Assembly (NCBI GenBank): GCA_038883795.1
Contig: JAVZLK010000027.1
Span: 1 to 21,403 of the forward strand
Direction of reading: 5' to 3'
Source of the DNA: Candidatus Bathyarchaeia archaeon
GTDB taxonomy: Archaea; Thermoproteota; Bathyarchaeia; Bathyarchaeales; Bathycorpusculaceae
DNA: 21,403 bases
A program made the position numbers and the translations under genes. How positions within the stretch are numbered: position 1 is the stretch's first letter; each line of letters starts with the position of its first letter. Below, one piece after another: positions 2,816 to 21,053 of this stretch. Under the pieces are notes generated by a model. That model saw only the letters and a program-made list of their open reading frames with translations, ran no database searches and was not told the origin of the DNA.

Positions 2816-4312
2816 GTGTCTTATATAACGAGGTTTATGGAATCTATAAAGGGGAAATTTTCTCCTGCGATATACATTAAATCCACAAAAGAACTTATAA
2901 TTGATCCAAGAGCTGTTCATGGAAGAAACATTATCTTATGCCAGTCTGAGGAAAAAATCGATAGAGATTCTTTAATTTTCTTAGGTAAAGTCCTGGATCA
3001 TACCCCAGTAGTCGATTTTTTTGGATATAATGTTTGGTTGGATGTTAGCTACCCCTATGTCATTATGGTACCTGGAAGAAGGGGTACCGGAAAGAGTTAT
3101 ACTTTGGGGGTTATAGCTGAAGGATTGGCGCTTACAAAGCATAAATCTCCGGTAACGACTAAATCTAAGAGTCACTGCGTTGTTATAATAGATACGTTAG
3201 GGCAGTTTTGGCAAATGAAATATAAACCCACTCCAAACGATGAGGAAGGAAAAAGACAACTGGAGTTATTAAAATCATGGGATTTAGAACCCACCGCAAT
3301 TGATAATGTACAAGTGTTTGTGCCACGAGGAACCAAACTGATGGATAGTTGGAAAGAATTGTCAATAAACTTTTCCGAAGTAGAGGTCTCGGAATTAGCT
3401 GGGCTTTTAGATGTCGACCTATATCAAGACCGAATGGGACAACTTCTTTTACACGTATACACTAAAACTAAAGAAGAGGGATATTATAGCGCTATAATAT
3501 CTGAACAAACGGGTGAACCAATAAAAAAGGAATTCGTACCGCCTAAACATAACATTGATATCGATTCATTAATAAAATGCATAGATAGCGATTATGATGT
3601 CCTTTCTAGATCTTCTGGATTTGAAATCCAAACGCGTAGGGCTTTAAAAAGTCGTTTAATGGCTATGCGTAAATGGAAAGTATTCGCTGAGAAGGGTACA
3701 CCTATTTCTGAAATATGTAAAGAAGGAATGGTTTCGATCATAAACTTGGAAGGTGTTGATGAAGATCTCAGGAATTTGATTGTAGCTGTTCTCGTAAGGA
3801 AAATTTTCCAAGCCAGAGAGATTACCCGAAAAATGGAAAAACTTTCTGAAGCAAAAGGAGAGCAAATTTCAAGAGATGCGAACGTAAGAATCCCCCCGGT
3901 TTGGTTAATCATAGACGAAGCGCATGAATATTGTCCCGCCACTGGTCGAACCGCTGCAAAGGAACCTTTGATTCGTTTTGCGAAAGAGGGAAGGAGTTTG
4001 GGTTTAGGGTTAGTAATGGCAACACAACAACCGTCTGCTCTTTCTCCCAAAATATCGTCACAAGTAGAAATAATCATAGGTCATGCTTTGGCGTTTTCGC
4101 GTGATATTGAGGCCTTTGAGGATAGGCTAGTTAATATAAAGGTTGATGAATATCAGGGAAAAAGTAGAACTCTGACTTTCGCTGAGCAAATCAGATTGCT
4201 TCCGCCAGGAACAGCTATTGTATCAGCGATGAACGTATCCTCAACTTTCTTGATGACCCTTCGTCCAAGATTAACATTACATGGTGGAAAAGCGCCAAAG
4301 ATGGTTTATTAA
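2816..4312 (+). CDS. HerA/FtsK-superfamily ATPase (DUF87/DUF853-like)
   Basis: Walker A GRRGTGKS, IIDTLGQF, Walker B LIIDEAHEY and the HerA-type KEGRSLGLGLVMATQQPS motif. Confidence 0.9.
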   Translation: MSYITRFMESIKGKFSPAIYIKSTKELIIDPRAVHGRNIILCQSEEKIDRDSLIFLGKVLDHTPVVDFFGYNVWLDVSYPYVIMVPGRRGTGKSYTLGVIAEGLALTKHKSPVTTKSKSHCVVIIDTLGQFWQMKYKPTPNDEEGKRQLELLKSWDLEPTAIDNVQVFVPRGTKLMDSWKELSINFSEVEVSELAGLLDVDLYQDRMGQLLLHVYTKTKEEGYYSAIISEQTGEPIKKEFVPPKHNIDIDSLIKCIDSDYDVLSRSSGFEIQTRRALKSRLMAMRKWKVFAEKGTPISEICKEGMVSIINLEGVDEDLRNLIVAVLVRKIFQAREITRKMEKLSEAKGEQISRDANVRIPPVWLIIDEAHEYCPATGRTAAKEPLIRFAKEGRSLGLGLVMATQQPSALSPKISSQVEIIIGHALAFSRDIEAFEDRLVNIKVDEYQGKSRTLTFAEQIRLLPPGTAIVSAMNVSSTFLMTLRPRLTLHGGKAPKMVY

Positions 4313-4784
4313 ATTGCCCGCTCCAATAATTTATCCCGACCAAATTCTAATTTGGACAGATGATATTCCCCGTCGTTTTGCCGACCTCCTCAGGACATCT
4401 CAACCGACTAATGTGTATATTTCTTCACCATGGATATCCGAATTTCCTAACAGTGCAATAGACTTACGCAAATTATTAATTCAGAAAAATGCAAGCACCA
4501 TAATTCTTACTAGACCGCCCAGAACAGAGGTCGCTAAACGTTTTTTGGAGGATTTAAAAAGGGATACCCGTACAAGAATTTATGTAAACAATAAATTGCA
4601 CGCAAAAATATACATAATTGAAGGCCCCAAGCATAAGTATGTCGTAATCGGATCTTCAAATTTTACTCAAGAATCTAGATTTAACTTAGAATTAGCGGTA
4701 GTTTTCGTAGGAAGTGATATTTTAACAAAAAGAGTAATATATGCATTCCTTGCTTACTTAAAACCAGTATGTAAACTGTGGTGA
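4281..4784 (+). CDS. Phospholipase D-family (single HKD) nuclease, DpdK/Nuc-like
   Basis: ISSPWI, LHAKIYIIE, IGSSNFT and NLE motifs. The real start may be the in-frame TTG at 4314, just after the HerA stop. Confidence 0.85.
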   Translation: MVEKRQRWFIKLPAPIIYPDQILIWTDDIPRRFADLLRTSQPTNVYISSPWISEFPNSAIDLRKLLIQKNASTIILTRPPRTEVAKRFLEDLKRDTRTRIYVNNKLHAKIYIIEGPKHKYVVIGSSNFTQESRFNLELAVVFVGSDILTKRVIYAFLAYLKPVCKLW

Positions 4785-4791
4785 ATTCCAA

Positions 4792-5970
4792 GTGAAAGCC
4801 TCTGATTATGGTTTAAAGCGCCCCTCATTTCAACTTGATCCGGAATTAGATGCAGAAATTTTTGTTGGACGTGACGATGTTAAGGATCGTTTAGAAAATA
4901 GGTTGAGACGTGCTATTGCAACCGGGACAAGTTTGCACACTGTAATATATGGTGACTACGGATCGGGGAAAACACACACACTAAATTATGTTTATAAATT
5001 CTTGCATCAGCAAAAACTTAATGTCATACCCATATTTGTTCGATCACCTCGGATAACAAAAAAGTCTGATCCATCGCACTTATATGCAAGTATAATTAAC
5101 GCGTTATCCATGACGGAAATCTTTGATCTTTTTGTCAAGATATACGATTCTGTTCAAGATAGAATAAAAGATATACCCGACCTATATAAACGGGTTGATA
5201 TATTGCGCTCTCAAATAGGAAATCGAGATCTGGCTTTTGTTGTGTATAGATACGTTACTACACGACCAACAGAAGACTATCTGGTTGTAAAATGGCTATC
5301 TGGAGAAAAACTTTCAGCCAGGGAAAAGGCAACATTAAACGTAATTTCGGATAACTCAGACCCATTTAATGCAGCACAGACGCTTTTAACCCTTTTCAGA
5401 CTATTTAGTAAATTTGCTGGAAAATATGTGTTATTAATGTTGGATGAAATGGAGTCTATTGCAGTTTTAGGCGACCGCCGAAAAGAGCTTGAGTTCCAAG
5501 AGTTCCTACGAATTTTAGTGGACGAAACTAGAAATGTAGGCGTCTTTATAGCATTTACAACGAAGTTAGGGTTGGAAGACGCACCAGAAATATTTAAATC
5601 CACATCGCCGGTTGGAAGCAGAATAGGATACCCGCAAAACTATATATGGTTAAAAGAATTTAACGAAATAGACCTTACCAAAAACTTTGTTAGAGAACTA
5701 ATTAAATCTCTCCGCGACGATAGAATTGACGTTTCCAAATTGGTTAAAAAATATCAAACCGAAACGACAGAAACTCTTAATGTTGATTTTTACCCCTTTA
5801 CCGAAGAGGCTATCGAAGTGATGTTTGAAATGTCCACACAAAGCGGACAAGTTAAACCACTTTTACCTAGAGATATCCAAAAAGCATTGACGGACGCCTT
5901 AGGAGATGCAATGATTCAGAATAAACCATTTGTCGATTCAGAAATTATGACTCGAATAATGTCAACCTAA
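4792..5970 (+). CDS. AAA+ ATPase, BrxD/DUF2791/DpdH-like (paralog 1)
   Basis: FVGRD, Walker A GDYGSGKTHTL, KWLSGE, Walker B LLMLDEME, GSRI, YPFTEEAI, PRDI. Confidence 0.85.
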   Translation: MKASDYGLKRPSFQLDPELDAEIFVGRDDVKDRLENRLRRAIATGTSLHTVIYGDYGSGKTHTLNYVYKFLHQQKLNVIPIFVRSPRITKKSDPSHLYASIINALSMTEIFDLFVKIYDSVQDRIKDIPDLYKRVDILRSQIGNRDLAFVVYRYVTTRPTEDYLVVKWLSGEKLSAREKATLNVISDNSDPFNAAQTLLTLFRLFSKFAGKYVLLMLDEMESIAVLGDRRKELEFQEFLRILVDETRNVGVFIAFTTKLGLEDAPEIFKSTSPVGSRIGYPQNYIWLKEFNEIDLTKNFVRELIKSLRDDRIDVSKLVKKYQTETTETLNVDFYPFTEEAIEVMFEMSTQSGQVKPLLPRDIQKALTDALGDAMIQNKPFVDSEIMTRIMST

Positions 5971-5977
5971 ATTTAGT

Positions 5978-7099
5978 TTAGGCATGTATATACCTTCGGC
6001 CAGGAACGGTAAGCGAATATTTCAGTCCCTTGGATTTAGCTAACCTTTTCACGAATTCCTCATAAGTTTCAAAATCTAAACAACTATAGCTGTTTAAGGC
6101 AAATGCCGCGCACGCCAAAAATACACTCTCATATGGAATAAGGATTAGCCCTATTGATCTAAAAAAATTTAGCACACGGAAGAAAATTTTATCGAATTCT
6201 TCTTCTGATATTTCAGCCAAACCACTATTAAACGATTTTGAAAGCAAGATTGACCATTTTCTTTCTTTTTCGTCTAGCAAAAGTCTCAAATGCTTATCGT
6301 CAGAATCTAAAAATGCTACCTGCAACTTTCTTCCAATATCACTTAATGAGTAACCCGAGTCATTTTTCTTTAGTACTCCCACATCAAGTAAGAAATTTAG
6401 TCGTGGTTCTACCTGCATTTCCTTATGCAAAATTGAAGCTTGCCCATCTACGCTTTTTCTTTTAAACCTCGCGCTTTCTGCTAAATATAGGCTTTTTAGA
6501 GATGAAATGGTTTCTATTTTTGCTTTCCTCTCAAACCATTGGACAACCTTTTCGAAATACTCTCCAACTAGTTCAGATCTCGTTTTGGTTGAGTTGTCAA
6601 AACAACATAATAAAGGAACTATACCGTCAATGTCGGAATACAATAAAGAATCGCAAAAAATTAACCTTTCACCTAAAGAGAGACGTGCAATCAATCCCTT
6701 TGTTTTGAACAAGGTTTCCCGCATCTGGACATCAAGAGATATAGCCCTCCCCTCTGGTGTTGTGTATAAGGCAGATAATATTTGGCCATATGTATCCCAT
6801 GTATTAATGTCTCTTCTAATAAAGTGTAAATTTTGAGCTAATGAAACATGGTTGATCGCTATAAAATCTTCAGAAGCTGGTAAATCTTCTCTTCCTATGC
6901 CTTTCCCTGCTACTTTTTCCCCCGTTTCAGGATCGATGTTCCACTTTTCTTTGTCTCTGTAAGTCTTTACAATTGTCTTATATTTACTGACTAATTGTTG
7001 CGTATATGTAAAGGATGATGGATAGGTAAGGAAAACTATAACTTTTATAAAACCCAATCTCCGTAGATCAGAACTTAAATTTAAATTCCCTCGGATCAA
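5978..7099 (-). CDS. Hypothetical protein with probable winged-helix domains
   Basis: 373-aa ORF. Segments HVSLAQNLHFI..NTWDTYG and EPRLNFLLDVGVLKKNDSGYSLSDIG match the wHTH recognition helix + wing pattern. Confidence 0.55.
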   Translation of the reverse strand: MIRGNLNLSSDLRRLGFIKVIVFLTYPSSFTYTQQLVSKYKTIVKTYRDKEKWNIDPETGEKVAGKGIGREDLPASEDFIAINHVSLAQNLHFIRRDINTWDTYGQILSALYTTPEGRAISLDVQMRETLFKTKGLIARLSLGERLIFCDSLLYSDIDGIVPLLCCFDNSTKTRSELVGEYFEKVVQWFERKAKIETISSLKSLYLAESARFKRKSVDGQASILHKEMQVEPRLNFLLDVGVLKKNDSGYSLSDIGRKLQVAFLDSDDKHLRLLLDEKERKWSILLSKSFNSGLAEISEEEFDKIFFRVLNFFRSIGLILIPYESVFLACAAFALNSYSCLDFETYEEFVKRLAKSKGLKYSLTVPGRRYIHA

Positions 7100-7785: not shown

Positions 7786-8754
7786 TTAATATTTGTTGTT
7801 TAATGGCCAGACTAGTATGTCCCATTCTTTACCAGGCGTTGTTTTTTCGCCTTTGAACATGAAATTTGTTATTTTTGGGCATACTGGTTTGAAGAAGCAG
7901 TTTGGTTGGCATTTTTTGCGTCTGCAGTTTCTGCCAGTTTTCCATATTGGTTCGTCCATTTCTAGTGGTAGTGTTTGCGTGTTTTCAGCTACCAACATCC
8001 AAGCATAATTGAATGGTTCGTTTAGTTCTGTGAAGGATCCTTCAAAATGTCCTTCTACTACCTTTACGAGTCCTAGGGCTATTCCTGCGCTGATGATATT
8101 TTTGTCTATTGGCATTGGAATCTCTGCCAGCTCATGTCTTTTGAAGTTCCACATTCCATTTCCAAGTTCGATTTCTTCACTTTCACACATGGTTCTAAAC
8201 CATAGTTTGATTACTTTATCTCCGTTTGGCAGCCCATTGTATTTTTGATCCTTAAGCCAATTTAGAAAGTCTTTGGCGCTTCGAGTCTTTGAAGAATTCA
8301 GATAGATGTCTAAAATTTTCCGAGGGTCGCCGTCGACTGTTTCCAATAAGTATCTTGCCGATTTATATACGCGAAGCGCCATTTTCTCAGGCGAGGCAGG
8401 CGCACGGTAAATGCCCCTAAAATGTTCCTTGAAAATGGAAACGATACGTTCAGGACCTTTTTTGACCAAATTTTTCGGATACAACTCCTCAAGGTGATTT
8501 TCAAAAAGCTTTCTTGAAGCAGACCATAAGTCATCAGCTATTGTCTTCAAATTGTAATCAATCAAACACGTATATGTCAGGTACAAAGCGTGTTCCAAAC
8601 TGTTCCATTCAACTCCTCTAGGAAGAATATGTTCGGGCCCACAAGCCAAACGCAGAAAATCCTTTTTATGTAAAAGGATACGCTGTGAAACCTTCTCTAT
8701 TTGCTGTAGATCAGCTTCGATGCAAAAAGAACCAATCCAGAAACGTTTAGCCAT
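7786..8754 (-). CDS. HhH-GPD superfamily DNA glycosylase-like protein with C-terminal 4-Cys (Fe-S) motif
   Basis: HhH-like GLPNGDKVIKLW, GPD-like IPMPIDKNI..LGLV, DEPIWKTG and CRRKKCQPNCFFKPVC. Starts 5 bp after the dpdA stop. Confidence 0.7.
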   Translation of the reverse strand: MAKRFWIGSFCIEADLQQIEKVSQRILLHKKDFLRLACGPEHILPRGVEWNSLEHALYLTYTCLIDYNLKTIADDLWSASRKLFENHLEELYPKNLVKKGPERIVSIFKEHFRGIYRAPASPEKMALRVYKSARYLLETVDGDPRKILDIYLNSSKTRSAKDFLNWLKDQKYNGLPNGDKVIKLWFRTMCESEEIELGNGMWNFKRHELAEIPMPIDKNIISAGIALGLVKVVEGHFEGSFTELNEPFNYAWMLVAENTQTLPLEMDEPIWKTGRNCRRKKCQPNCFFKPVCPKITNFMFKGEKTTPGKEWDILVWPLNNKY

Positions 8755-8759
8755 TCACA

Positions 8760-10481
8760 TCACGCAACAAACTCTAAAAGTGATTTTTCTGTCGGGATAG
8801 CTTGCTTGATAATGCTACATAAATCGCCATAACCTTTACTCTTAACTGTTATGAATCGTTCATCCCATAGGTTTCGAAGAGTTTCTCTGTATTTTTCTCC
8901 TGCTATAACTAGGATTGTTTCATACTTACCCAAGATGGGTTTCAATTTTTCCTCAACAATTGGGCGAATTCTTTCTATATCTTCTGAAGTCTGTAATACT
9001 TTCTCGTATCCCTCGATAATTTCATCTGGAAAAACAAGTCCGTATTTTGCAGAAATTATTACGTAGTCAAAGCCCATGCTTTCAGCATACTCCCTGACAG
9101 TTTTGAATAACCTACCTTGGTACATTTTCTTGGCAGGAACTTTTACTGAACTATTGTAGCCGAGTTTTTCTTTTGAGCATTCTGTTATGATTAGGACTTT
9201 TTCCCCCTTTTTAAGGGATGAAAGTTGAAACTCTGTATCTTTGTTGGTTTGATTGATGAAAATCTGCCATTTTTGTGGATCCTTTAGTACTTGATAGAAT
9301 ACGTAAGTGTTGTGGAAACCGCGGCGTCTGTTGCGGTTGTTTCCGCGGAATATTACTACTTCTATGCCGATTTTGCTGCATATTGGGCAACTGCATCTTT
9401 TCCAAGGTTTGTCTTCTAATGTCTTTCTGTAATATGATACTAGTTCAGTTTTTTCGCCTGCAGTTTTATAAAACTGTAAGATGGTGGATAATGCCTGATT
9501 GATTTCGGTTTCGCCTTTATCGTAGAGCCTTAGTTTATTCAAGCATTGCTGCTCTAAATTTTTCAAAAAACTTTCATTTTGTTCTGGTACTAGACTTTCT
9601 ATTACTTTCTCGCGTTTTTTACCTACAAATGGAATGCGAATGGCTGTGTAACCTTTCCCGTCAATTGATAAATAGTTGAGTTGTGATGTTGGAGCAGATA
9701 GCCATGCTTTACGAAGATATGATGCGGAATCAAAACCTACCATAATGCCTAGATCTTCTAATTCTTTAAATTTGGGGAACAGGGCGAATCTGGCTAGACC
9801 GAAAAAGTGAATGTATTCAGGGGATTTCCGATACTCTTTAATTTTCCTCTTTAACTCTTCGATTAAATTAATTATGAAGGACGTGGGTGACCGTGCCAGA
9901 CCGCCGAAACCGATGTGTGAAGCGCCTAAGTCCACATATTTCCTATAAAAGTTTAGATAATCTGAAACATTCCAGCCCTGAACAGCCATGATGAGTTGGA
10001 AGTCATTTTTATATCTTCTTTTCCACTCCTCAAATGACTTAAGAGCGTTTTCGAAGGTGATTTTCATCCTGTAGTCTTTTTGGCGTTCGTGTTTTGGAAC
10101 TACGAGGTGATCTACCGTAACGCCGTAATTAAATCCAAGTTCGTGATAATATTCCAGGGTTTCGATAGGGTCATACCGCGGACTTTCCTCGTCGACGTAT
10201 CCGAAAGCCCCGCAGTCGCCCATTATCTCAAAATTTTTGGGGAGACGTAAGACTTTATGGATGCCTTCCTGCTTGGCAAGCTGATACTTCTTTTTATCTT
10301 GCTCCAATGTTATTCTGGAAACCAAAACTCCATCTATGGGAACTTTATCCACTCCAAAAATATCCCAGATGTAGGCATCATTGTTGAAGGAGTCCAGTTT
10401 GTGCTCTGGGGAATGAGCATCGTTGATAAAGTCATAGCCTGGATCTACACGGTCATTCCATTCAGGTATGAAGTACTTCAC
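8760..10481 (-). CDS. dpdA: DNA 7-deazaguanine transglycosylase DpdA with C-terminal DUF6884/YaaA-like domain
   Basis: DpdA hallmarks: DRVDPGYDF, DGVLVSR, GDCGAFGY, TVDHL, VQGW, GGLA, HFFG, FDSASYLRKAW, YTAIRIP, PWKRCSCPIC and IFRGNNRNRRRGFHN. An extra domain of about 150 aa has IITECSKEK..AKKMYQGRLF..IISAKYGLV..IEGYEK. Confidence 0.92.
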   Translation of the reverse strand: MKYFIPEWNDRVDPGYDFINDAHSPEHKLDSFNNDAYIWDIFGVDKVPIDGVLVSRITLEQDKKKYQLAKQEGIHKVLRLPKNFEIMGDCGAFGYVDEESPRYDPIETLEYYHELGFNYGVTVDHLVVPKHERQKDYRMKITFENALKSFEEWKRRYKNDFQLIMAVQGWNVSDYLNFYRKYVDLGASHIGFGGLARSPTSFIINLIEELKRKIKEYRKSPEYIHFFGLARFALFPKFKELEDLGIMVGFDSASYLRKAWLSAPTSQLNYLSIDGKGYTAIRIPFVGKKREKVIESLVPEQNESFLKNLEQQCLNKLRLYDKGETEINQALSTILQFYKTAGEKTELVSYYRKTLEDKPWKRCSCPICSKIGIEVVIFRGNNRNRRRGFHNTYVFYQVLKDPQKWQIFINQTNKDTEFQLSSLKKGEKVLIITECSKEKLGYNSSVKVPAKKMYQGRLFKTVREYAESMGFDYVIISAKYGLVFPDEIIEGYEKVLQTSEDIERIRPIVEEKLKPILGKYETILVIAGEKYRETLRNLWDERFITVKSKGYGDLCSIIKQAIPTEKSLLEFVA

Positions 10482-10567: not shown

Positions 10568-10708
10568 TTAAGTTGTTTTTTCTTTAAAGTAATCAGAAAT
10601 AATAAATCTGATTAGTTCTTGAATCGTTCCTAGTTTCCTTTTTTGGCGTTCTTTTTCGAGGGCTGCGTACATATCGTCCGGCATTGACATAGTGAATTTT
10701 TTAGCCAT
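10568..10708 (-). CDS. Small ribbon-helix-helix (CopG-like) DNA-binding protein, 46 aa, absent from the ORF track
   Basis: Manual translation: MAKKFTMSMPDDMYAALEKERQKRKLGTIQELIRFIISDYFKEKTT-stop. RHH strand-helix-helix pattern; AGGTG Shine-Dalgarno-like sequence just upstream. Confidence 0.85.
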   Translation of the reverse strand: MAKKFTMSMPDDMYAALEKERQKRKLGTIQELIRFIISDYFKEKTT

Positions 10709-10718
10709 CTAAATACAC

Positions 10719-10778
10719 CTTTGGAATTTTATGGATGGAAAAATATTTATACATGATTACTTCTTTAGAATTCCAAAG
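10719..10778. promoter_or_regulatory. Divergent promoter region with an inverted repeat flanking a TATA-like element
   Basis: CTTTGGAATT (10719-10728) and AATTCCAAAG (10769-10778) are perfect reverse complements (12/13 when extended inward) and bracket GGAAAAATATTTATAC (BRE/TATA-like). Confidence 0.55.
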
Positions 10779-10801
10779 AGGTATAAAGAAGGAAGGATGT
10801 T

Positions 10802-11968
10802 ATGTTGGAAGAAAAATTGTTAGATTTTAAAAAAGTTTCCAAAAGCTATAAGGCATACGGCCTTAAACGAAACCCATTCCCGTACGTAGGAGTACCTGAA
10901 GACGCAGTATCGCTTTACGCTGATCGCAAAAAAGAACTGAAGATAATAGAGGAAATCATAAAATCATCGCTGCAAAATGTTTCTTGCCACGCAGCACTTA
11001 TAGGAAGCTATGGCAACGGCAAAACCCACACTTTAAAGTATCTAAAGAGACAAATAGAGAATCAGCTGGAAGATGTCGTTGTCATTTACATATCGAACCC
11101 AGGCGACCGAATACTGTCGCTTTACTCCAACTTCATGTATGAATTCGGCTTTCACCGCCTAGAGGAGTTGGTATGGAAATTTCTAGAATTTGCTACAGGC
11201 GAAAAAAGTCTAAGAAAGAAAGTTAATGAAGGGGAGGTTTTACTGCCAGAAATCCTTGAAATCGGCAAAAGAAGGCTTCTAAACGAAATAAAATATACTG
11301 ATTTTGCAATGGCTTTCCTAAAACTCACCATGGAAGAATGCAAGTTTCTCGCCTGGAAATATCTTTGCGGTGAGCCCATAATTTCAGACTACAGAAGAGA
11401 ACTCGACGTGGTGTCAGCAATAGACAATGACGAAAAAGCCTTACGAGCCTTTATGAGTCTAAAGAGCATTCTTACATTATTAGGTAACAAACTCTTATGC
11501 CTATTAATCGACGAATTTGAGGCCATTGAATATCTTCATCCAATTCTTAAACAGAAAATTCTAAACGGAATAAGACATCTAATAGACTTAAACCCGCAAG
11601 GATTCTGCCTAATTATAGGATGCGCCCCAGAAGTCTGGGTGGACGTTGTCAAGGAATACCACGCCTTCTCTGATAGAATCTTTAGACAAGTAACCTTGAA
11701 AGCCTTAAGCGAAAGGGACATGCGAGATTTTATCGCTGCCTATTTAAGGTCGTCGAGACTGGATGACGCTGATCCGCCAAGCGAAATTTTCCCATTTACT
11801 GATGATGCAATAACGGAGATTCATAAAGTTGCTGAAGGCAATATTCGACGGATGCTTATGGTGTGCAATCAAGCCATAGATGCTGGGGTAGAACATAATG
11901 CACCGGTAATTACCTCCCAAAAACTAAGGGAACTGCTTCCAGATCTATTCGAAACGGTTGAAGCATAA
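10802..11968 (+). CDS. AAA+ ATPase, BrxD/DUF2791/DpdH-like (paralog 2)
   Basis: YGLKRNPF, Walker A GSYGNGKTHTL, KYLCGE, Walker B LLIDEFE, SDRI, FPFTDDAI, GNIRR. Stop overlaps the next start (TAATG). Confidence 0.85.
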   Translation: MLEEKLLDFKKVSKSYKAYGLKRNPFPYVGVPEDAVSLYADRKKELKIIEEIIKSSLQNVSCHAALIGSYGNGKTHTLKYLKRQIENQLEDVVVIYISNPGDRILSLYSNFMYEFGFHRLEELVWKFLEFATGEKSLRKKVNEGEVLLPEILEIGKRRLLNEIKYTDFAMAFLKLTMEECKFLAWKYLCGEPIISDYRRELDVVSAIDNDEKALRAFMSLKSILTLLGNKLLCLLIDEFEAIEYLHPILKQKILNGIRHLIDLNPQGFCLIIGCAPEVWVDVVKEYHAFSDRIFRQVTLKALSERDMRDFIAAYLRSSRLDDADPPSEIFPFTDDAITEIHKVAEGNIRRMLMVCNQAIDAGVEHNAPVITSQKLRELLPDLFETVEA

Positions 11969-13038
11969 TGACGCATGCTTTTGAAGTAGAGCACGAAAAC
12001 GGACTTGCGCGAGTTGGACGGTTGAAAACAAAACATGGCATGCTATCAACACCAGTTCTTTTTCCAGTCCACAATTTAGGCGCAGAAGGCGGGTGGAACA
12101 CCCCAAGATACTGGGAAAAATTTCCCCACATCAACACAGCTATGTTCAACGCCTCACTCTTAGCCCTAAACCGGGGAGGACATTTAGGGACAATTCTACA
12201 AATAGGCGTCCACCGCTTCATAAGATTTTTTGGTGTAGCATTTGTTGACAGCGGCGGTTTCTTATACAAAAAACATAGGCTCGCATTCAAACCTGAAAAG
12301 ATCCTGGAAATCCAAGAAAAAATGGGGGCAGACATCGCCTCAACCCTTGACTATCCAATAAACTGCAAAATTTTATCCGAAAACAGCAATATTCTTCGAA
12401 CAGTTAACAACGCGAAACTAGCCTCTTCTTTGAAGAAAAACCCGGAAATGCTGCTTTTTGCAAGTATAAACGGCTATGACCCTGTTGTTGTCAGAAATAT
12501 AATAAAACATCTTAAAAAACATGGAAAATTTGATGGCTTTGCCATTGGAAGTTTGATGCCAAAATACGGCAGCTACAGTTTCCTTGTTGACACCATACTT
12601 GCTGCGAGATTAGAGGCGGGTAATACTCCAATCCACGTGTACGGGCTAGGAAGCCCGCTCATATCTCATCTTTTAATTTATCTGGGCGTGGACTCCTTTG
12701 ATTCCTCATACTTTATTGTAGCTTCAGGGAAAAGAAATTACGCCATCCCAGGTTTAGGCCGAATAGAATTCAAAGATCTATACAAATACTCCTCGTACAT
12801 AAAATGCGAGTGCCCAATATGCAAAACAATGCCCCTTTCAGAAATAAGGAGAAGTCGAAATCTTATAACATTGCATAATCTATGGGCATTGTGGAATGAA
12901 ATAGATAAAGTTAAAATCGCCATAAAGGAGAACAGAGTTGAAGAATATATCACCGAACGCCTTTCAAAGGCTAAGTGGGCGAAAGCAGCTTTTGAATACG
13001 CAAAACGCAGAGTTCGCTTCCGCTTTCCGGGTGGTTAA
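11968..13038 (+). CDS. Guanine transglycosylase (TGT family), catalytic domain only, archaeosine-TGT-like
   Basis: ARVGRLKTKHG..TPVLFPV, VDSGGF, TLDYP, FAIGSLMP, HVYGLG, GVDSFDSS and Zn site CECPIC...HNL. At 356 aa it lacks the C-terminal C2/PUA tRNA-binding domains. Confidence 0.9.
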   Translation: MTHAFEVEHENGLARVGRLKTKHGMLSTPVLFPVHNLGAEGGWNTPRYWEKFPHINTAMFNASLLALNRGGHLGTILQIGVHRFIRFFGVAFVDSGGFLYKKHRLAFKPEKILEIQEKMGADIASTLDYPINCKILSENSNILRTVNNAKLASSLKKNPEMLLFASINGYDPVVVRNIIKHLKKHGKFDGFAIGSLMPKYGSYSFLVDTILAARLEAGNTPIHVYGLGSPLISHLLIYLGVDSFDSSYFIVASGKRNYAIPGLGRIEFKDLYKYSSYIKCECPICKTMPLSEIRRSRNLITLHNLWALWNEIDKVKIAIKENRVEEYITERLSKAKWAKAAFEYAKRRVRFRFPGG

Positions 13039-13040
13039 TT

Positions 13041-13898
13041 ATGGTTGAAAGAAAAACCATGAGGCCAATAACCCTCAGGAGAGTCATTGAAATATGCAGT
13101 TTATCAACAAAGGATAAAGGGTTAACCGTGGAGACAGTGTCAAAGAGGCTAAATTCAAGCAGGTCAAGGGCTAAAGAGATGCTCCTCGAAGTTGAAAAAA
13201 TGGGCTTACTAGATCATTCCGGAAACTATTGGACAGCAAGCGAGAGAACCAGCAAATTTATAGAATATTTTGAAAAAGAGGAATGGAACAAGATTCACCA
13301 ATACTTTCTAGAAAACTACAAATTTTATAAAGAGTTCATCCAAATACTGCAAGGCCACATTAACGACCCGCAAGGTCTAAGCTTAGACGATATTGTTAAA
13401 GAATCCGTAGACCGTGGGTTACATTTAAACAAGACAGCGGTTGAAGTTTTAGTAGATTGGTGTGAACGACTAGGAGTAATTCAAAGGAATCTTTACACAG
13501 CCAAGGCTTACTTATTAAGAGATAAAATTGAAAACTTTGAATGTTTTCTCAAAATTTTGGTAAAAGTTTACCGCAAACTCGCATTTCCACTTTGGCGCAA
13601 AGAAGTTTATGTCGAAATACCACTAATTAGGGAAAACGTATGTGAAGAACTTAAAATCTCTCGAAAAACCTTTGATGATTTGCTAAAGGAGGCCTATTTA
13701 AAGAATGTTGGAAAAATCGAATTTAGCGGTGCACCTATAACTACTTTTGCCAAAAAAAGCCCGCTTAGCGAGAAAAAAATAACCCCTGTTGGGAAAGAGG
13801 CAATAATGTCGGCAAGATCCACATTAAAAAGGGAAAGAGAAGGCTTAACAATTAATAAAAAATCTTACTACTATCTTGCTATCCATGAAGCAGTCTAA
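13041..13898 (+). CDS. Tandem winged-helix DNA-binding protein
   Basis: Three wHTH-like units: LTVETVSKRLNSSRSRAKEMLLEVEKMGLL; LSLDDIV..LNKTAVEVLVDWCERLGVI; VEIPLIRENVCEELKISRKTFDDLL. Starts 2 bp after the TGT stop. Confidence 0.7.
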   Translation: MVERKTMRPITLRRVIEICSLSTKDKGLTVETVSKRLNSSRSRAKEMLLEVEKMGLLDHSGNYWTASERTSKFIEYFEKEEWNKIHQYFLENYKFYKEFIQILQGHINDPQGLSLDDIVKESVDRGLHLNKTAVEVLVDWCERLGVIQRNLYTAKAYLLRDKIENFECFLKILVKVYRKLAFPLWRKEVYVEIPLIRENVCEELKISRKTFDDLLKEAYLKNVGKIEFSGAPITTFAKKSPLSEKKITPVGKEAIMSARSTLKREREGLTINKKSYYYLAIHEAV

Positions 13899-13925: not shown

Positions 13926-14597
13926 TCATTCTGTGAAATACTTTGGAAGCACTTTTAGTAAAGAAATGGTCATTGCCGCAGCTCCGACTGTTCCGACAAG
14001 CCTTTCATAAATCATTAGTGGGAGCACTCCGACAAAAACTTGCCATGGAAGGCCGAGTAGATGCACTGCGAATATCATCATCATCCCCTGCTCAGTCATT
14101 GTCGAGATATAAGTGTACAATGGTATCTTTAGATGTGGCGGCGTCATTCTCTTTAATGCGCTTACCACGGCAAAAGCTATAGCTACTGAGTGGGGTACGA
14201 TAAAGTAGGGGAATGGGTAATTTTTGATTAAATAGGATGTGATGGCCCCCACCAGAAAAATTGAAGTCGCCAATGCACCCGGCCTTGCCTTATGATATGT
14301 AAGGCTTCCAAGGGTTGCCCCCACAACTGGCAGCAAAATTGTGTAAGGGCCGAACATCGCCTGAGAGGGTGATACGTAGAGGGCTATGACTCCTCCAAAA
14401 AGTGAAGCGAAAAAGGCTTCTAATGGAGGCAGTAGAACTGCTATAACTGGAGTTATTATGAGGTTTAAAGCGAGAAAACTTGGTGCTCCTATGAACATGC
14501 TTATGGGAACGAGACTTGTAATCACATAGAGCGCAGCAAAAACTCCAATCCGCGATGCTTTAAGAGCATTATCAGATGACGATGTCCCTTGCTTCAT
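13926..14597 (-). CDS. ECF transporter S-component-like membrane protein (substrate unknown)
   Basis: 223 aa with about 6-7 hydrophobic segments. N-terminal IGVFAALYVI and PVIAVLLPPLEAFFASLFGG match the S-component helix-1 and xxLxGPxxG-type patterns. Confidence 0.7.
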   Translation of the reverse strand: MKQGTSSSDNALKASRIGVFAALYVITSLVPISMFIGAPSFLALNLIITPVIAVLLPPLEAFFASLFGGVIALYVSPSQAMFGPYTILLPVVGATLGSLTYHKARPGALATSIFLVGAITSYLIKNYPFPYFIVPHSVAIAFAVVSALKRMTPPHLKIPLYTYISTMTEQGMMMIFAVHLLGLPWQVFVGVLPLMIYERLVGTVGAAAMTISLLKVLPKYFTE

Positions 14598-14917
14598 TTT
14601 TTCACCTTTCCTGCCAGCAAGTCCTCATAAACACGTCTCATATGAAAAACAGCTGTAACAGTCTCTTCAGGCAATCCACAGCCACAAGCACCACACTTGG
14701 GGCATATCATCCAGCTGCATTTAACACAAATCTTAGCTTCAGACGAGTCAAAACGCTCTCCACACTTGAAGCAATAAACATGTGGGTTAACCACAAACTG
14801 CAAAAAGTTTTCAATGAGTCTTGAAAGAGGAATATGCTTTTGGTCTGCGACAATTTTAGCTTTACTTAACACTGTTCCATCCAAAGTTATTGTGAGCTTC
14901 ACTCTAGACGTATTCAT
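14594..14917 (-). CDS. RHH (DUF6364-like) regulator with Cys-rich Zn-binding C-terminus
   Basis: VKLTITLDGTVLSKAKIVADQKHIPLSRLIENFL followed by CFKC, CVKC and CPKCGACGC. 4-bp ATGA overlap with the S-component gene. Confidence 0.75.
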   Translation of the reverse strand: MNTSRVKLTITLDGTVLSKAKIVADQKHIPLSRLIENFLQFVVNPHVYCFKCGERFDSSEAKICVKCSWMICPKCGACGCGLPEETVTAVFHMRRVYEDLLAGKVKK

Positions 14918-15245: not shown

Positions 15246-15653
15246 ATGAATGACCAGGAGTGGCATTTTCACAAGGCAAAACAACTCTTGTTTTATTTTG
15301 GGATTTTCATAGATTTCATTTGGGCCTCAGTTTTGGTAATGGTGTTTGCTTTGCATTTCTTAGGCTATAATGTGCCGGAAACGCTAACATCGCTGGATTT
15401 TATGAATTCGGCTGTTGGATACTCTTTTTTAATTCTCTCCATAGCTTATCCAGTTAGGAGAGGCGCAAAGCTTTGGAAGCTAAGTTTAGCCATTAACCTA
15501 ACAATTGGACTTCTTGTGCTCATAGGGGGCGTATACAGCGTCATTTTAATGGAGGCAAACATTTTTACATATCTATGCCTTATCATAGGAGCGTTTACCA
15601 TCATGTTTAATATGAAAAATGCGTCGCATTCAAATGAAAAGTTAACTGTGTAG
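15246..15653 (+). CDS. Small integral membrane protein (about 4 TM)
   Basis: 135 aa with four hydrophobic stretches; TTTATA box shortly upstream (leaderless-type). Confidence 0.7.
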   Translation: MNDQEWHFHKAKQLLFYFGIFIDFIWASVLVMVFALHFLGYNVPETLTSLDFMNSAVGYSFLILSIAYPVRRGAKLWKLSLAINLTIGLLVLIGGVYSVILMEANIFTYLCLIIGAFTIMFNMKNASHSNEKLTV

Positions 15654-15708
15654 ACGTTGACTATAGTTTAGGGCTTACAGTCAATTACGAATCAACTCAA
15701 AACCGTCT

Positions 15709-15780
15709 TCAACTATGGACTTTTTCCGTTATTAGTGATATACTTTTTGTGTATTCCGTTAAGGCTTGGCGTAGAACCTC
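15709..15780 (-). repeat. Copy 2 of the RHH-gene 3' end (24 codons)
   Basis: Minus strand reads EVLRQALTEYTKSISLITEKVHS-TGA. Similarity ends abruptly at 15780 and an in-frame stop lies upstream. Confidence 0.9.
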
Positions 15781-15913
15781 CCTTCCAACATTGTTTCTGT
15801 TTATCGTTTGTAGAATAAGCTGCGATTAGATGCTTGCAAAATTGGATTAGGCTGGCGAAGGTAGATTGCGGCTTTGGTGCGTTAATCTTAAATTTGTTAC
15901 GCCTTAAACTTTA

Positions 15914-16150
15914 ATGTGGGCTTTGTTGACCGAAAAGCATGAAGAGGAAAGGCTTCCAGTTTCTGAGAAAGTGAAAGTTTTGCGTTTCCAAACACTTTTT
16001 AAGGGTGGGCGTTGGTGGGCTGCCGCAGGCCTATTCGAGGCTTTTGGAAGTGGAGACTCATGGAAAAGACGGCAAAAGTTTGTTTTCAGGTCGAAGGACG
16101 AATGGGAGAAGGCCAAAAAAGCCATAGAAAGCCTAGCGGCGGAGCTTTAA
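15914..16150 (+). CDS. Small Trp-rich hypothetical protein (possible PC4-like ssDNA-binding fold)
   Basis: 78 aa ending 4 bp before the helicase start. Aromatic beta-strands then a C-terminal helix (KFVFRSKDEWEKAKKAIE). The fold is a guess. Confidence 0.55.
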   Translation: MWALLTEKHEEERLPVSEKVKVLRFQTLFKGGRWWAAAGLFEAFGSGDSWKRRQKFVFRSKDEWEKAKKAIESLAAEL

Positions 16151-16154
16151 GGGC

Positions 16155-18026
16155 ATGCTGGCCGAGAAACGCTATGTTTGGCACCCGCTGTTAAAGGAGA
16201 AAGCCGTAGAGGATAGGCTTTACCAGAACAGGATTCTGGAAAGAGCCCGCAAATGCAACACTCTTGTTGTCTTGCCGACAGCCCTCGGAAAAACAGTCAT
16301 AGCACTGCTATTAGCGATAGAAAAGGCCGAGGAGGGCAAAATATTCTTTTTAGCGCCCACAAGGCCCCTAGTCCAGCAGCACCACCAAACCTTCCTAGAC
16401 AAAACATGGTTCGACGAAGCCGAACTAGCCCTTGTTACCGGGCGTTATCCGCCAAACCATAGAGCCGCCCTATACAACAGGGCGAAGGTTGTTTTCGCCA
16501 CTCCACAATGCGTTTGGAACGACTTGAAAAGCGGGCTTTTAAGGCTTGATAATGTCGCGCTCATAATTTTTGATGAGGCCCACAGGGCTAGGGGAAACTA
16601 CGCCTACGTTGGCATAGCCACCTACTATTTTAGGCAATGCCGCAAACCCCTAGTTTTGGGTTTAACGGCTTCTCCGGGAGGAAGCGAAGAGAAAATAGCT
16701 GAAGTTTGCAGGAATTTGGGCATAAAAGCCATAGAACACCGAACAGACGAGGACAAGGACGTTAAGCCCTACATCCAACCCATAGAGGTTGAATGGCGCC
16801 GTGTAAAGCCTCCAGAACAGTATTTAGCCGTTAGAGACAAGCTTAGGCAGATGCTGGTTGAGCGTGTCAAGGGCTTGCAGGCTCTCGGCGTTTTAACGGA
16901 CAAGCAGCCAGCCTTCATAACAAGGCGCGATCTAGTAGAGCTTAACGAGGAATTGCAGCGTAGGCTTGGAGGAGGAGAAGGCGGATACCTATACCAGCTT
17001 AAAGTTGAAGCAACAGCAGCCCTAAGCATAGCCCACATGATAGAACTAATAGAGTCGCAGGGGCCAGAAACCCTAGAAGCCTTCATAGAGAAAAGCCTGA
17101 AACGCATGGCCATGGAGGGAAGCAAGGGCCACAAATCAATCCTAAACGATCCACTCTTCATAGAAGCTAGAAAAAACCTTAGAAGCTGCACGGCAACACA
17201 AAACCCGAAAGTAACAGAGCTTGTCAAAGTTTTGGAGGCCCAGCTCCAAGCCAAACCAGACTCGAGGCTTATAATTTTTACGCAGTACCGCGACACAGTA
17301 AACGCCCTAACCAAAGCCCTAAACAACAATTCAAGGCTTAGGGTTGAACGCTTCGTGGGCCAAGGCGAACGTGAAGGCGACCCTGGAATGAGCCAAGAAC
17401 AGCAACGTGAAGTCCTTGAAAAGCTTAGAAATGGCGAAACAAACGTTTTGGTGGCAACAAGCATAGCTGAGGAAGGCTTAGACATTCCAGAAGTGGACCA
17501 CGTAATATTTTATGAGCCTGTTCCAAGCGAGATACGCTACATACAGCGAAGGGGCAGAACAGGAAGACGCGTAGCAGGAAAAGTAACCATCCTAATAGCC
17601 GAAGACACCGTTGACGAAGCCTTCTACTGGTCAAGCATCTCAAGAGCAAGAAAAATGAAGCGCATAATAAGCCAACTAAACAGGAAACTGTCAGAACTGC
17701 TAAAGGAGAAGGCCAAGCCAACCATAACCCTAATGGACTACCAGCCACAAACGACACAAGCCACAACAACAAGCGCCCAAACACAAGCCGCTCCACCTAA
17801 AAAGGAGCTCTGGAAACCACAAACAATACAGACGAAAGGCCTAAGCCAAGCCATAAAGTGGCTGATGGAAAACCTCCCAAACCAAACAATAACAATAGAA
17901 GAAGTCGTCCAACGGGCCTATGAAGATGAAGGCCTAGAAAAGGCAGCCGTTGAAACAGCCATATGGCGCCTAACACAACAAGGCCAAATATACCAGCCAG
18001 AACCGGGAAAAATAAGAAAACTATGA
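16155..18026 (+). CDS. Hef/FANCM(Mph1)-like SF2 DEAH helicase lacking the ERCC4 nuclease, with C-terminal winged helix
   Basis: RLYQ, LPTALGKT, APTRPLVQQH, DEAHRARGNYAY, LTASPG, IIFTQYRDT, FVGQ, ATSIAEEGLDIP, YEPVPSEIRYIQRRGRTGR. Confidence 0.9.
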   Translation: MLAEKRYVWHPLLKEKAVEDRLYQNRILERARKCNTLVVLPTALGKTVIALLLAIEKAEEGKIFFLAPTRPLVQQHHQTFLDKTWFDEAELALVTGRYPPNHRAALYNRAKVVFATPQCVWNDLKSGLLRLDNVALIIFDEAHRARGNYAYVGIATYYFRQCRKPLVLGLTASPGGSEEKIAEVCRNLGIKAIEHRTDEDKDVKPYIQPIEVEWRRVKPPEQYLAVRDKLRQMLVERVKGLQALGVLTDKQPAFITRRDLVELNEELQRRLGGGEGGYLYQLKVEATAALSIAHMIELIESQGPETLEAFIEKSLKRMAMEGSKGHKSILNDPLFIEARKNLRSCTATQNPKVTELVKVLEAQLQAKPDSRLIIFTQYRDTVNALTKALNNNSRLRVERFVGQGEREGDPGMSQEQQREVLEKLRNGETNVLVATSIAEEGLDIPEVDHVIFYEPVPSEIRYIQRRGRTGRRVAGKVTILIAEDTVDEAFYWSSISRARKMKRIISQLNRKLSELLKEKAKPTITLMDYQPQTTQATTTSAQTQAAPPKKELWKPQTIQTKGLSQAIKWLMENLPNQTITIEEVVQRAYEDEGLEKAAVETAIWRLTQQGQIYQPEPGKIRKL

Positions 18027-18148
18027 AAAGGTCCACCAAATCCGCATATCATTAACAAGTAATAAGCTATGAAAAAGATTAAGGCTAAATTTTAACAGCA
18101 TCTGATAAAGGCAGAAAGGGAGGAGACCGTCAGCATAAACCCTTTATA

Positions 18149-18505
18149 TTAGGTTTCTGATGCATCCTCCCTTTTCATTTTCAATGCCAACCTAACCAGT
18201 AGGATAGCTGCCAACGAGAATAGGAGCGAGGCTAAAGCTATCATCATGCCTACCACAATGTTTCTATACGGCGGCGCTGCAGCAAAGCCCACTATGAACC
18301 CGCCTAGAGTCGAACATAGAATTATTAAGAACTCTAAGGTAGCCCTGTATTTCCAAGCGAGTATCCCAGCAATAATTAGGGCTATTACAACAAAAATCGC
18401 AGGCGACACCACAACGCTTGGGGTCTCTTCCGGAGTTGGAGGCGGCGGCTGCTGCATCAACAGCTTGACAAGGCACGTTAACATTGTTCCCACTTTTAAC
18501 CACAC
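18149..18505 (-). CDS. Small membrane protein (Pro-rich stretch + about 3 TM)
   Basis: QQPPPPTPEETPS followed by three hydrophobic segments. Start uncertain. Confidence 0.55.
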   Translation of the reverse strand: MWLKVGTMLTCLVKLLMQQPPPPTPEETPSVVVSPAIFVVIALIIAGILAWKYRATLEFLIILCSTLGGFIVGFAAAPPYRNIVVGMMIALASLLFSLAAILLVRLALKMKREDASET

Positions 18506-18548
18506 TCACGAAAGTAATCAACCAATGCGATAATAAATTTCAAATTTT

Positions 18549-18713
18549 TTAACTGTGAACCTTTTCTGTTATTAGTGATATGCTTTTTGCGTATTCCATG
18601 AAGGCTTGGCGTAAGACTTCGCTTTCTCCTATGCCGAGGCTTTTTGCTATGCGCTCCAACAAATGTTTTTGTTCTTTGCTTAGGTAGACTTTAACCCAGC
18701 TTTTCCTCCGCAT
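18549..18713 (-). CDS. Ribbon-helix-helix transcription regulator, 54 aa, absent from the ORF track
   Basis: Manual translation: MRRKSWVKVYLSKEQKHLLERIAKSLGIGESEVLRQAFMEYAKSISLITEKVHS-stop. Classic CopG/RHH pattern; divergent from the head genes. Confidence 0.9.
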   Translation of the reverse strand: MRRKSWVKVYLSKEQKHLLERIAKSLGIGESEVLRQAFMEYAKSISLITEKVHS

Positions 18714-18724
18714 AACTCTTTAAA

Positions 18725-18780
18725 CCTACATAAGTTCCTACATAGTTACCGTTCAACATTTGAATTTTAAAACTTTTCTT
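18725..18780 (-). promoter_or_regulatory. Promoter and candidate operator of the RHH gene
   Basis: Minus-strand GAAAAAGTTTTAAA (BRE/TATA) at about 18778-18765. Direct repeat CCTACATAAGTT/CCTACATAGTT at 18725-18747 covers the expected transcription start. Confidence 0.55.
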
Positions 18781-18802
18781 CCACCCAAAAGCTTCAAGGT
18801 CT

Positions 18803-20617: not shown

Positions 20618-20619
20618 GC

Positions 20620-21039: not shown

Positions 21040-21053
21040 AGGAGGGACGGCGT

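Follow-up and report, generated by a model that had tools for sequence, protein, structure and literature searches.

We analysed a 21,403-nt stretch of contig JAVZLK010000027.1 from a Candidatus Bathyarchaeia archaeon (assembly GCA_038883795.1), referred to below as the window, in which three coupled genes code for an AAA+ ATPase with a BrxC/BrxD-type domain (ATPase1), a short transglycosylase of the TGT family (TGT2), and a protein built of three winged helix-turn-helix units (the wHTH protein). Comparative sequence analysis suggests that this trio is probably part of the modification half of an archaeal Dpd-type restriction-modification island that marks host DNA with 7-deazaguanine, and that TGT2 acts as a DNA-directed companion of DpdA, the transglycosylase encoded next to the trio. 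TGT2 would then not be a tRNA enzyme, and it would not constitute a route of its own. The genome to which the window belongs is labelled G000, other genomes carry G-numbers and loci carry L-numbers, while C10 is another contig of G000. Coordinates of the features are collected in Table 1.

The original prediction had assigned the trio to a route of DNA base exchange separate from DpdA. This part of it is contradicted by the gene next door, which is transcribed divergently from the trio, 320 bp upstream, and codes for a protein that matched the NCBIfam DpdA equivalog NF041059 along its whole length with 339.9 bits (cut-off 200) and scored 299.6 bits with the PADLOC DpdA model. The C-terminal part of the same protein is a DUF6884 domain (PF21818, 68.6 bits, cut-off 30), and PADLOC DpdC models matched residues 445-500 with an E-value of 9.5e-8. 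DUF6884 is named as the dpdC domain in 10.1101/2025.02.24.639861, and is described as a distant relative of YaaA in the Pfam 2024 paper (PMC11701544). Given the matches to DpdA, DUF6884, and the DpdC models, the locus therefore holds a DpdA-DpdC fusion.

The association of the trio with DpdA was followed across genomes. A scan with the wHTH profile, using one genome per species, returned nine loci, four from uncultured archaea and five from haloarchaea (Halopenitus persicus, Halorubrum californiense, Hrr. sp. SD626R, Hrr. distributum, and Hrr. ezzemoulense). The genes for TGT2, the wHTH protein, and the ATPase were adjacent in all nine loci and occurred in both gene orders. DpdA lay inside the fetched stretch in six of the nine; it scored over the cut-off in all five haloarchaeal genomes, compared to none of the 14 control genomes, and was present in every one of the nine loci or genomes reached via the wHTH protein. 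Haloferax volcanii, a preQ0 producer and one of the controls, gave no DpdA match. A metagenome search with TGT2 yielded 80 loci, three of which (L033-L035, 34-49% identity) were examined, the other 77 (22-29% identity) being probably other TGTs. The trio was adjacent in two of these three, both with the full core of the system. Conservation of the triplet, which the original prediction had named as a check, extends from Bathyarchaeia to haloarchaea.

A larger sample of 301 Halobacteria genomes was scanned with profiles for DpdA, the wHTH protein, and TGT2. DpdA was found in 39 genomes (over the cut-off in 37), and the wHTH profile also matched 39. TGT2 was recognized in 39 genomes, in frames of 344-418 aa that scored 415-481 bits; the remaining TGT matches, at 181 bits or less and in frames of 495-1012 aa, are archaeosine tRNA-guanine transglycosylases (arcTGTs). 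All three markers were present together in 38 genomes, 260 genomes had none, and three had a single one (TGT2 in G447, the wHTH protein in G411, and DpdA in G602, where it lies at a contig end). The wHTH and DpdA genes shared a contig in 35 of the 38 positive genomes, mostly at a distance of 2-10 kb. The near one-to-one co-occurrence of TGT2 and the wHTH protein with DpdA is a second result that speaks against a route separate from DpdA.

The reverse search, from DpdA, gave a similar picture. Among 401 genomes of the window's phylum, DpdA scored over the cut-off in three (G000, G115, and G380), and in each of them an AAA+ ATPase and a short TGT adjoin DpdA-DUF6884. The neighbours in G115 and G380 are a protein of ca. 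217 aa, a BrxC/D-like ATPase, and the short TGT. The G115 trio is homologous to that of the window, as judged by hhalign probabilities of 97.5% (the wHTH protein against the 218-aa G115 protein) and 98%, and by a BLASTP E-value of 4e-23 for ATPase1 and its G115 counterpart. A Pfam scan of the 217-aa G380 protein gave no match. When the wHTH protein was used as the single query, G000 was the only genome of the 401 to be recovered, the diverged G115 version being missed.

DpdA-DUF6884 and the trio are the constant part of the loci and the nuclease genes the variable part: HerA, the PLD nuclease, ATPase2, and a 373-aa protein form the module of the window, some haloarchaea have SMC-like and helicase genes, and in L034 there is no nuclease gene nearby. 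We therefore placed the trio with the writers of the modification. Several further observations concern the spread of the island. A locus in a contig labelled Candidatus Aenigmatarchaeota (L011, JAWBPV010000078.1) carries an island whose TGT2 and wHTH protein are 95% and 90% identical to those of the window, which suggests recent transfer or a binning error. In L015, L017, and L018, a block coding for proteins of ~285 aa, ~290 aa, and 1025-1123 aa lies downstream of the haloarchaeal trio, together with a Csa3-like regulator in L017 and L018 and a 911-aa DEAD helicase in L015; the large proteins match coiled-coil or AAA families, and the block may be a local restriction module.

The three trio genes are as tightly coupled as the original prediction had stated. 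The stop codon of the ATPase1 gene and the start codon of the TGT2 gene share one base in a TAATG overlap (gcaTAATGacg, positions 11966-11970), and the TGT2 stop codon (TAA, 13036-13038) is separated by 2 bp (tt) from the ATG of the wHTH gene. A TTTATA hexamer (10746-10751) and a purine-rich stretch (10790-10797) precede the ATPase1 ATG. ATPase1 matched the Pfam BrxC_BrxD family with 39.4 bits (cut-off 22.2) and AAA_22 with 28.8 bits (cut-off 27), an ORC-CDC6-like match was sub-threshold, and Walker A (GNGKT) and Walker B (LLIDEFE) motifs are seen in its translation. Its score with the NCBIfam equivalog for BrxD, 33 bits, was far below the cut-off of 350.

TGT2 matched the TGT family with 133 bits in Pfam, and scored 166.9 bits with the arcTGT equivalog TIGR00432, under half of the cut-off of 350. 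It is itself not a DpdA, as scores with NF041059 (21.1 bits, cut-off 200) and with the PADLOC DpdA model (19 bits) were low. In an alignment with the 582-aa Pyrococcus horikoshii arcTGT (1iq8), TGT2 covers residues 10-338 only, and both the alignment and a structure model show that the C1, C2, and PUA tRNA-binding domains are missing, in line with the original prediction of a TGT devoid of such domains. The VDSGGF and GVDSFDS motifs, the CxCxxC...H zinc site, LHNLW, and the base-pocket Asp are kept, and the residues of the guanine pocket are arcTGT-like. Residues D94, D242, D245, C280, C282, and C285 are invariant across 16 members of the TGT2 family. The structure model (predicted local distance difference test, pLDDT, 87) had the arcTGT catalytic domain as its top Foldseek match, with a TM-score of 0.84-0.86 relative to the query and of 0.53 relative to the target, about half of which is spanned by the match.

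A search of 1.84 billion representative sequences with TGT2 gave 970 matches. The best ~20 were all short. Long arcTGTs, none above 136 bits, made up most of those further down, and other short TGTs were interspersed among them. A FastTree phylogeny was calculated from 153 rows, comprising 138 of the 150 representatives listed (the 12 shorter than 300 aa being left out), 11 linked TGT2s, an extra TGT from L013, the arcTGT of the genome, and two DpdA outgroups. All long arcTGTs, including that of the genome itself, fell into one clade of 91 rows with a support of 100. TGT2 formed a clade of its own (23 rows, support 99) outside the arcTGT clade, in which five short arcTGT-like rows are also placed. 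TGT2 is thus set apart from the housekeeping arcTGTs, as the original prediction required. Further clades of short TGTs (~310-395 aa; 18, 7, 3, and 2 rows) lie outside the arcTGT clade, as does a five-row clade with four short members and one of 598 aa; these clades may be more families of nucleic-acid-modifying TGTs. Other short TGTs were also met in defence-like contexts. One such locus, L127 (G394:C19:5000-19397), codes for NurA, HerA, a 1407-aa AAA/STAND protein, a standalone DUF5591 protein, and a 343-aa TGT; the other is L035, which also holds a DUF5591 protein and is followed by HxlR, JAB, and MazG genes. In the arcTGT of G000, the TGT domain is likewise succeeded by DUF5591.

The wHTH protein gave only sub-threshold winged-helix matches in Pfam. 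Its AlphaFold2 model (pLDDT 85, predicted TM-score 0.82) contains three winged-helix units and, at the C-terminus, a small beta domain, and the top Foldseek matches of the model are tandem-winged-helix proteins, namely, the SelB C-terminus (E-value 3.4e-5) followed by RPC62 and the recognition domains of BpuJI and FokI. Seventy-four homologues were collected, and all five with an organism name come from metagenome-assembled genomes of Bathyarchaeia, Bathyarchaeota, or Nitrososphaeria. The haloarchaeal relatives are 28-31% identical, and no relative was found when the profile was run against viral contigs. A prediction of the complex of TGT2 with the wHTH protein, run without controls, scored 0.00 and speaks neither for nor against an interaction.

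G000 itself contains further copies. A second complete and diverged copy of the island is present at C10:8000-27000 (L005), where the genes are arranged differently: DUF6364, membrane protein, TGT2, wHTH, ATPase, DpdA-DUF6884, and then methylase, PLD, ATPase2, HerA, and a 370-aa protein. The ten genes shared by the two islands are 75, 62, 50, 40, 39, 35, 34, 31, 29, and 25% identical, the trio genes falling between 39 and 50% (40% for ATPase1). A 560-aa C10 protein is matched by the DpdA models in addition to the DpdA of the window. G000 has four TGT-family matches, which are a 543-aa housekeeping arcTGT (TGT plus DUF5591), TGT2 of the window, and two on C10, the 560-aa protein being one of these two. 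The C10 copy adds an N6/N4 DNA methylase and a 354-aa protein, and genes for UvrD-like and PD-(D/E)XK proteins and a serine recombinase adjoin it.

A third, partial cassette, at C10:829-4068 (L010), codes for a wHTH paralogue (28% identity), a BrxC/D-like ATPase, and, in the slot taken by the TGT elsewhere, a 386-aa protein; it contains neither a TGT nor a DpdA. The Atlas clusters nearest to the 386-aa protein are PIN_4, and its weak NCBIfam match (23 bits) is to a part of PRK13764 that we take to be the PIN region of that ATPase. The ATPase-wHTH pair seems to serve as a vehicle for more than one kind of enzyme, and the presence of a PIN-like protein in the TGT slot fits a chassis with an exchangeable enzyme. 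A further BrxC/D-like ATPase (weak match) and a very divergent, long-branch TGT-like protein of 380 aa were also seen at L013:15494-18688 on a Bathyarchaeota chromosome, ~7 kb from the main system.

Genes for the supply of 7-deazaguanine precursors are linked to the system in several loci. In L016, QueC, QueE, QueD, and YhhQ are encoded directly upstream of TGT2 (Pfam; QueD was read from L019), and open reading frames (ORFs) of the same sizes occupy these positions in all five haloarchaeal loci; L019 holds, in addition, a second set of QueE, FolE, and QueC. In L034, genes for Q_salvage, QueC, FolE, QueE, and QueD adjoin DpdA-DUF6884 and the trio, and YhhQ is present in G115 and L035. The haloarchaeal que genes have the third-codon-position G+C content of the host, and that of the trio is lower, so part of the que linkage may reflect one insertion beside housekeeping genes. 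QueC, QueD, and YhhQ were not found in G000, an 87% complete genome, which fits import through the membrane protein encoded beside the trio. This protein resembles the S component of energy-coupling factor transporters (ECF-S): its nearest Atlas clusters are annotated "ECF transporter S component" (score 0.96), and it is 75% identical to a C10 paralogue that itself has a weak PF07155 match. Its gene is kept beside the trio in L011, L012, L014, and L033. We propose that it is an importer of a 7-deazaguanine precursor, a substrate that is inferred, and the Bathyarchaeia host may depend on salvaged precursors for its tRNA too.

The conserved core of the island consists of DpdA-DUF6884, the AAA+ ATPase, TGT2, and the three-winged-helix protein, and is accompanied by a precursor supply, for which the window has the proposed ECF-S-like importer and other loci have YhhQ and/or queC/D/E, in some cases joined by folE. 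In the proposed mechanism, preQ0 or a related base would be imported, and the wHTH protein and the ATPase would engage DNA and provide the ATP-dependent step that belongs to the ParB-like DpdB in bacteria. DpdA and the catalytically intact TGT2 would swap guanine for the 7-deaza base, the DUF6884 domain would turn the nitrile into an amide to give dADG (2'-deoxy-7-amido-7-deazaguanosine), and the HerA-PLD module would attack unmodified DNA. In Salmonella, DpdA is reported to insert preQ0 only together with the ATPase DpdB, after which DpdC, acting independently, makes dADG (PMC10164549). Neither a DpdB among 11 window proteins (PADLOC) nor the DndB/DpdB family PF14072 in G000 (87% complete) was found and, since the Salmonella DpdA needs DpdB, the ATPase and the wHTH protein are proposed to fill this role.

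A number of points weigh against this interpretation. The tree was built with FastTree only, and relations between its clades and its deep branches are unresolved. The sampled Halobacteria genomes are related to one another, and three of the 38 positive ones had already been found through the wHTH scan. In the metagenome locus L035, which codes for a TGT2-like protein, DpdA-DUF6884, and YhhQ, a scan of 12 ORFs turned up neither a BrxC/D ATPase nor a wHTH protein. Both CxCxxC and the GGF of VDSGGF are missing from the short TGTs of G115 and G380, so the conserved role may not be catalysis, and three of the 39 haloarchaeal TGT2 genes (in G476, G619, and G624) contain one in-frame stop. With G000 only 87% complete, the absence of QueC, QueD, YhhQ, and DpdB is not proof. 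Finally, every functional step of the mechanism is an inference, and the need for two transglycosylases is unexplained. TGT2 may write at a second site or strand, be a partner subunit of DpdA, or read unmodified guanine.

The loss of the zinc-site and GGF motifs in the G115 and G380 proteins, which stay beside DpdA all the same, speaks for the idea that TGT2 is a subunit of a heterocomplex with DpdA, similar to eukaryotic QTRT1/QTRT2, and mainly holds or positions DNA. The almost one-to-one co-occurrence of the two proteins agrees with it, and the QTRT1/QTRT2 analogy has been raised for Dpd (PMC10164549). We nevertheless regard this arrangement as unlikely, since the Asp pair and three Cys residues that are invariant in the 16 TGT2 sequences argue for catalysis.

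It appears more doubtful that TGT2 is a reader or effector that distinguishes self from non-self. According to this model TGT2 would be loaded by the ATPase and the wHTH protein, would flip guanines and react with unmodified ones only, and the resulting covalent adduct or abasic site on foreign DNA would recruit the HerA-PLD nuclease, sites modified by DpdA-DpdC being inert. The PIN-like nuclease in the TGT slot of the paralogous L010 cassette, and the location of ATPase2 together with HerA and PLD, are consistent with such a function. However, nuclease modules vary while the trio stays, and in L034 the trio remains with DpdA-DUF6884 and the preQ0 genes even though no nuclease gene is nearby. 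If true, the model would amount to a restriction principle built on base-exchange chemistry.

The version put forward in the original prediction, in which the ATPase, TGT2, and the wHTH protein form a self-sufficient base-exchange route that operates without DpdA, is now very unlikely. Tight coupling of the trio and its preservation as a unit in both gene orders agree with it, as does G447, in which TGT2 was found without DpdA or the wHTH protein at the thresholds used. But DpdA is present in 38 of the 39 TGT2-positive Halobacteria genomes and in all nine loci or genomes to which the wHTH search led, it lies 320 bp from the trio in the window, and the search that started from DpdA reached the ATPase-TGT pair in three genomes out of three. 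Least probable of all is that TGT2 acts on tRNA or some other RNA, as a split or surplus arcTGT that is in the island by chance or through precursor sharing. The nearest solved structure and the best-scoring curated model are indeed those of arcTGT, and the pocket residues are arcTGT-like, but G000 has a full-length arcTGT of its own, TGT2 falls outside the arcTGT clade, stays under half of the equivalog cut-off, and tracks DpdA, and the distribution is patchy, with TGT2 in 39 of 301 Halobacteria genomes and its wHTH partner in one of 401 genomes of the window's phylum in the single-protein search.

Compared to TgtA, the arcTGT represented by 1iq8, TGT2 shares the catalytic TIM barrel, the zinc subdomain, the catalytic Asp pair, and a similar base pocket; it differs in lacking C1/C2/PUA, in its separate clade, in scoring below the equivalog cut-off, and in being patchy, island-borne, and always extra beside a housekeeping arcTGT. 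The system as a whole belongs with Dpd. With bacterial Dpd (dpdA-C for modification and dpdD-K for restriction, as in Salmonella Montevideo) it has in common a DpdA over the cut-off, a DpdC-family domain, a PLD nuclease, linkage to preQ0 genes and YhhQ, and an ATPase needed beside the transglycosylase (PMC10164549; 10.1101/2025.02.24.639861). In contrast to bacterial Dpd, no ParB/DndB-like DpdB was found, DpdA and DpdC are fused rather than encoded by separate genes, the hosts are archaea, and the gene set is enlarged by a further enzyme of the TGT family, a BrxC/D-like AAA+ ATPase, and a protein with three winged helices. HerA-PLD or other modules stand in place of DpdD-K, the sole trace of which in the window is the PLD protein, with a weak match to the DpdK model (23.7 bits, cut-off 100). 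The GATOR-GC survey, as described in 10.1101/2025.02.24.639861, required dpdAB and covers bacterial phyla only.

The BREX-Related Capture (BRC) system, a computational prediction for archaea and bacteria (PMC12839542), likewise combines a HerA/FtsK ATPase, ORC/Cdc6- or BrxC-like AAA+ ATPases, a tripartite winged-helix protein, and a TGT proposed to mark DNA. BRC is characterized by PglZ, DUF6079, DUF4007, a STAND NTPase, and GNAT; homologues of DpdB or DpdC are absent according to its authors (PMC12839542). The window contains HerA, a TGT, DpdA, and a DpdC-like domain, and no PglZ, DUF6079, DUF4007, or GNAT match in Pfam. The window system is set apart from BRC as the latter is described in the main text of PMC12839542, and the BRC TGTs may or may not be of the TGT2 clade.

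The original prediction of a BREX/Ssp-like chassis with an interchangeable modifier holds only loosely. What stands is the BrxC/D-type ATPase domain, the logic of an ATPase and a DNA-binding protein combined with a modifier, and the exchange for a PIN-like protein in L010. The homologies that it implied do not: no relationship of the wHTH protein to BrxA or SspB, or of ATPase1 to SspC, was found with Pfam, NCBIfam, PADLOC, or Foldseek. Nor does the window contain a PglZ, PglX, Ssp, or Dnd modification gene, as PglZ, PglX, BrxA, BrxB, BrxL, SspA-D, and DndA-E went undetected in it (18 ORFs in Pfam; NCBIfam; PADLOC), the Dnd matches given by PADLOC being weak and confined to the ATPase regions of DndF and DndH.

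The papers cited in this analysis report 7-deazaguanine in cellular DNA for bacteria and viruses. In the literature searched, outside of which most subscription journals lie, we found no report of 7-deazaguanine in an archaeal chromosome, nor any description of a DpdA from archaeal cells or of a system with two TGTs. If the Dpd-type interpretation is correct, roughly every eighth haloarchaeal species sampled (38 of 301) would hypermodify its own DNA, as would scattered members of the Thermoproteota. The machine would be unlike the bacterial one in that it has two transglycosylases and a fusion of DpdA to DpdC, and in that DpdB is replaced by an AAA+ ATPase together with a winged-helix adaptor. 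TGT2 would represent a new, DNA-linked branch of the TGT superfamily. The system is of interest because it is common in culturable haloarchaea; several of the carriers are culture-collection strains of harmless halophiles, and the prediction is therefore directly testable. Cultured carriers include Halorubrum californiense DSM 19288, Hrr. ezzemoulense DSM 17463, Hrr. distributum JCM 10118, and Halopenitus persicus.

Table 1. Genes and predicted products of the Bathyarchaeia island in the window
Feature	Coordinates	Strand	Length (aa)	Basis
HerA/FtsK-type ATPase, proposed restriction module	2816..4312	+		PF01935, 58.4 bits; PADLOC mad8 and HerA models
PLD-family nuclease	4281..4784	+	167	PF13091, 34.5 bits
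ATPase2, second BrxC/D-like AAA+ ATPase, paralogue of ATPase1	4792..5970	+		PF10923, 52.1 bits
Protein of no known family, accompanies HerA module	5978..7099	-	373	C10 paralogue
AGOG/HhH-GPD-like DNA glycosylase	7786..8754	-	322	PF09171, 27.8 bits (cut-off 26.1)
DpdA (residues 1-400) fused to DUF6884 (residues 434-547)	8760..10481	-	573	NF041059, PF21818
Ribbon-helix-helix-like candidate regulator (by eye), between the divergent genes	10568..10708	-	46	Sequence reading
ATPase1, AAA+ ATPase with BrxC/BrxD-type domain, trio gene 1	10802..11968	+	388	PF10923
TGT2, transglycosylase, catalytic TIM barrel alone, trio gene 2	11968..13038	+	356	PF01702
Three-winged-helix (wHTH) protein with C-terminal beta domain, trio gene 3	13041..13898	+	285	AlphaFold2, Foldseek
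Membrane protein like ECF transporter S component	13926..14597	-	223	Atlas clusters, paralogue
DUF6364 protein, co-oriented with membrane protein	14594..14917	-	107	PF19891, 38.3 bits

The remaining genes of the window are in part shared with other copies of the island. The AGOG-like gene lies 5 nt downstream of DpdA-DUF6884; its homologue in L012 is split into three pieces, and the C10 copy has none. Together with these pieces and the in-frame stops of haloarchaeal TGT2 genes, the TGT2 of L013, cut to 314 aa, is a sign of decay in some copies. The DUF6364 protein is 62.5% identical to its C10 paralogue and is also encoded in L012, L013, and L033. HerA has a C10 paralogue at 34% identity and is found in L013 and L033, and the PLD nuclease has a paralogue on C10. 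ATPase2 is 29% identical to the ATPase2 of C10, which in turn is 25% identical to ATPase1 (E-value 1.9e-13). The 373-aa protein is 25% identical to the 370-aa protein of C10 and has a homologue in L013. When the wHTH profile was compared with the 373-aa protein and with a 412-aa protein of the window, hhalign found no similarity; the extra proteins of the HerA module are therefore not shown to be wHTH paralogues. No tRNA genes were found in the window.

Near 15.5 kb the G+C content of the window climbs from about 37-42% to about 50%. The segment that follows, 15500-21403, codes for a Hef-like DEAD/Helicase_C protein (16155-18026), a 604-aa protein without a family, and a phage cement protein (20620-21039, PF09956), and contains an open frame that runs off the window end. 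It may be a provirus or another element that abuts the island.

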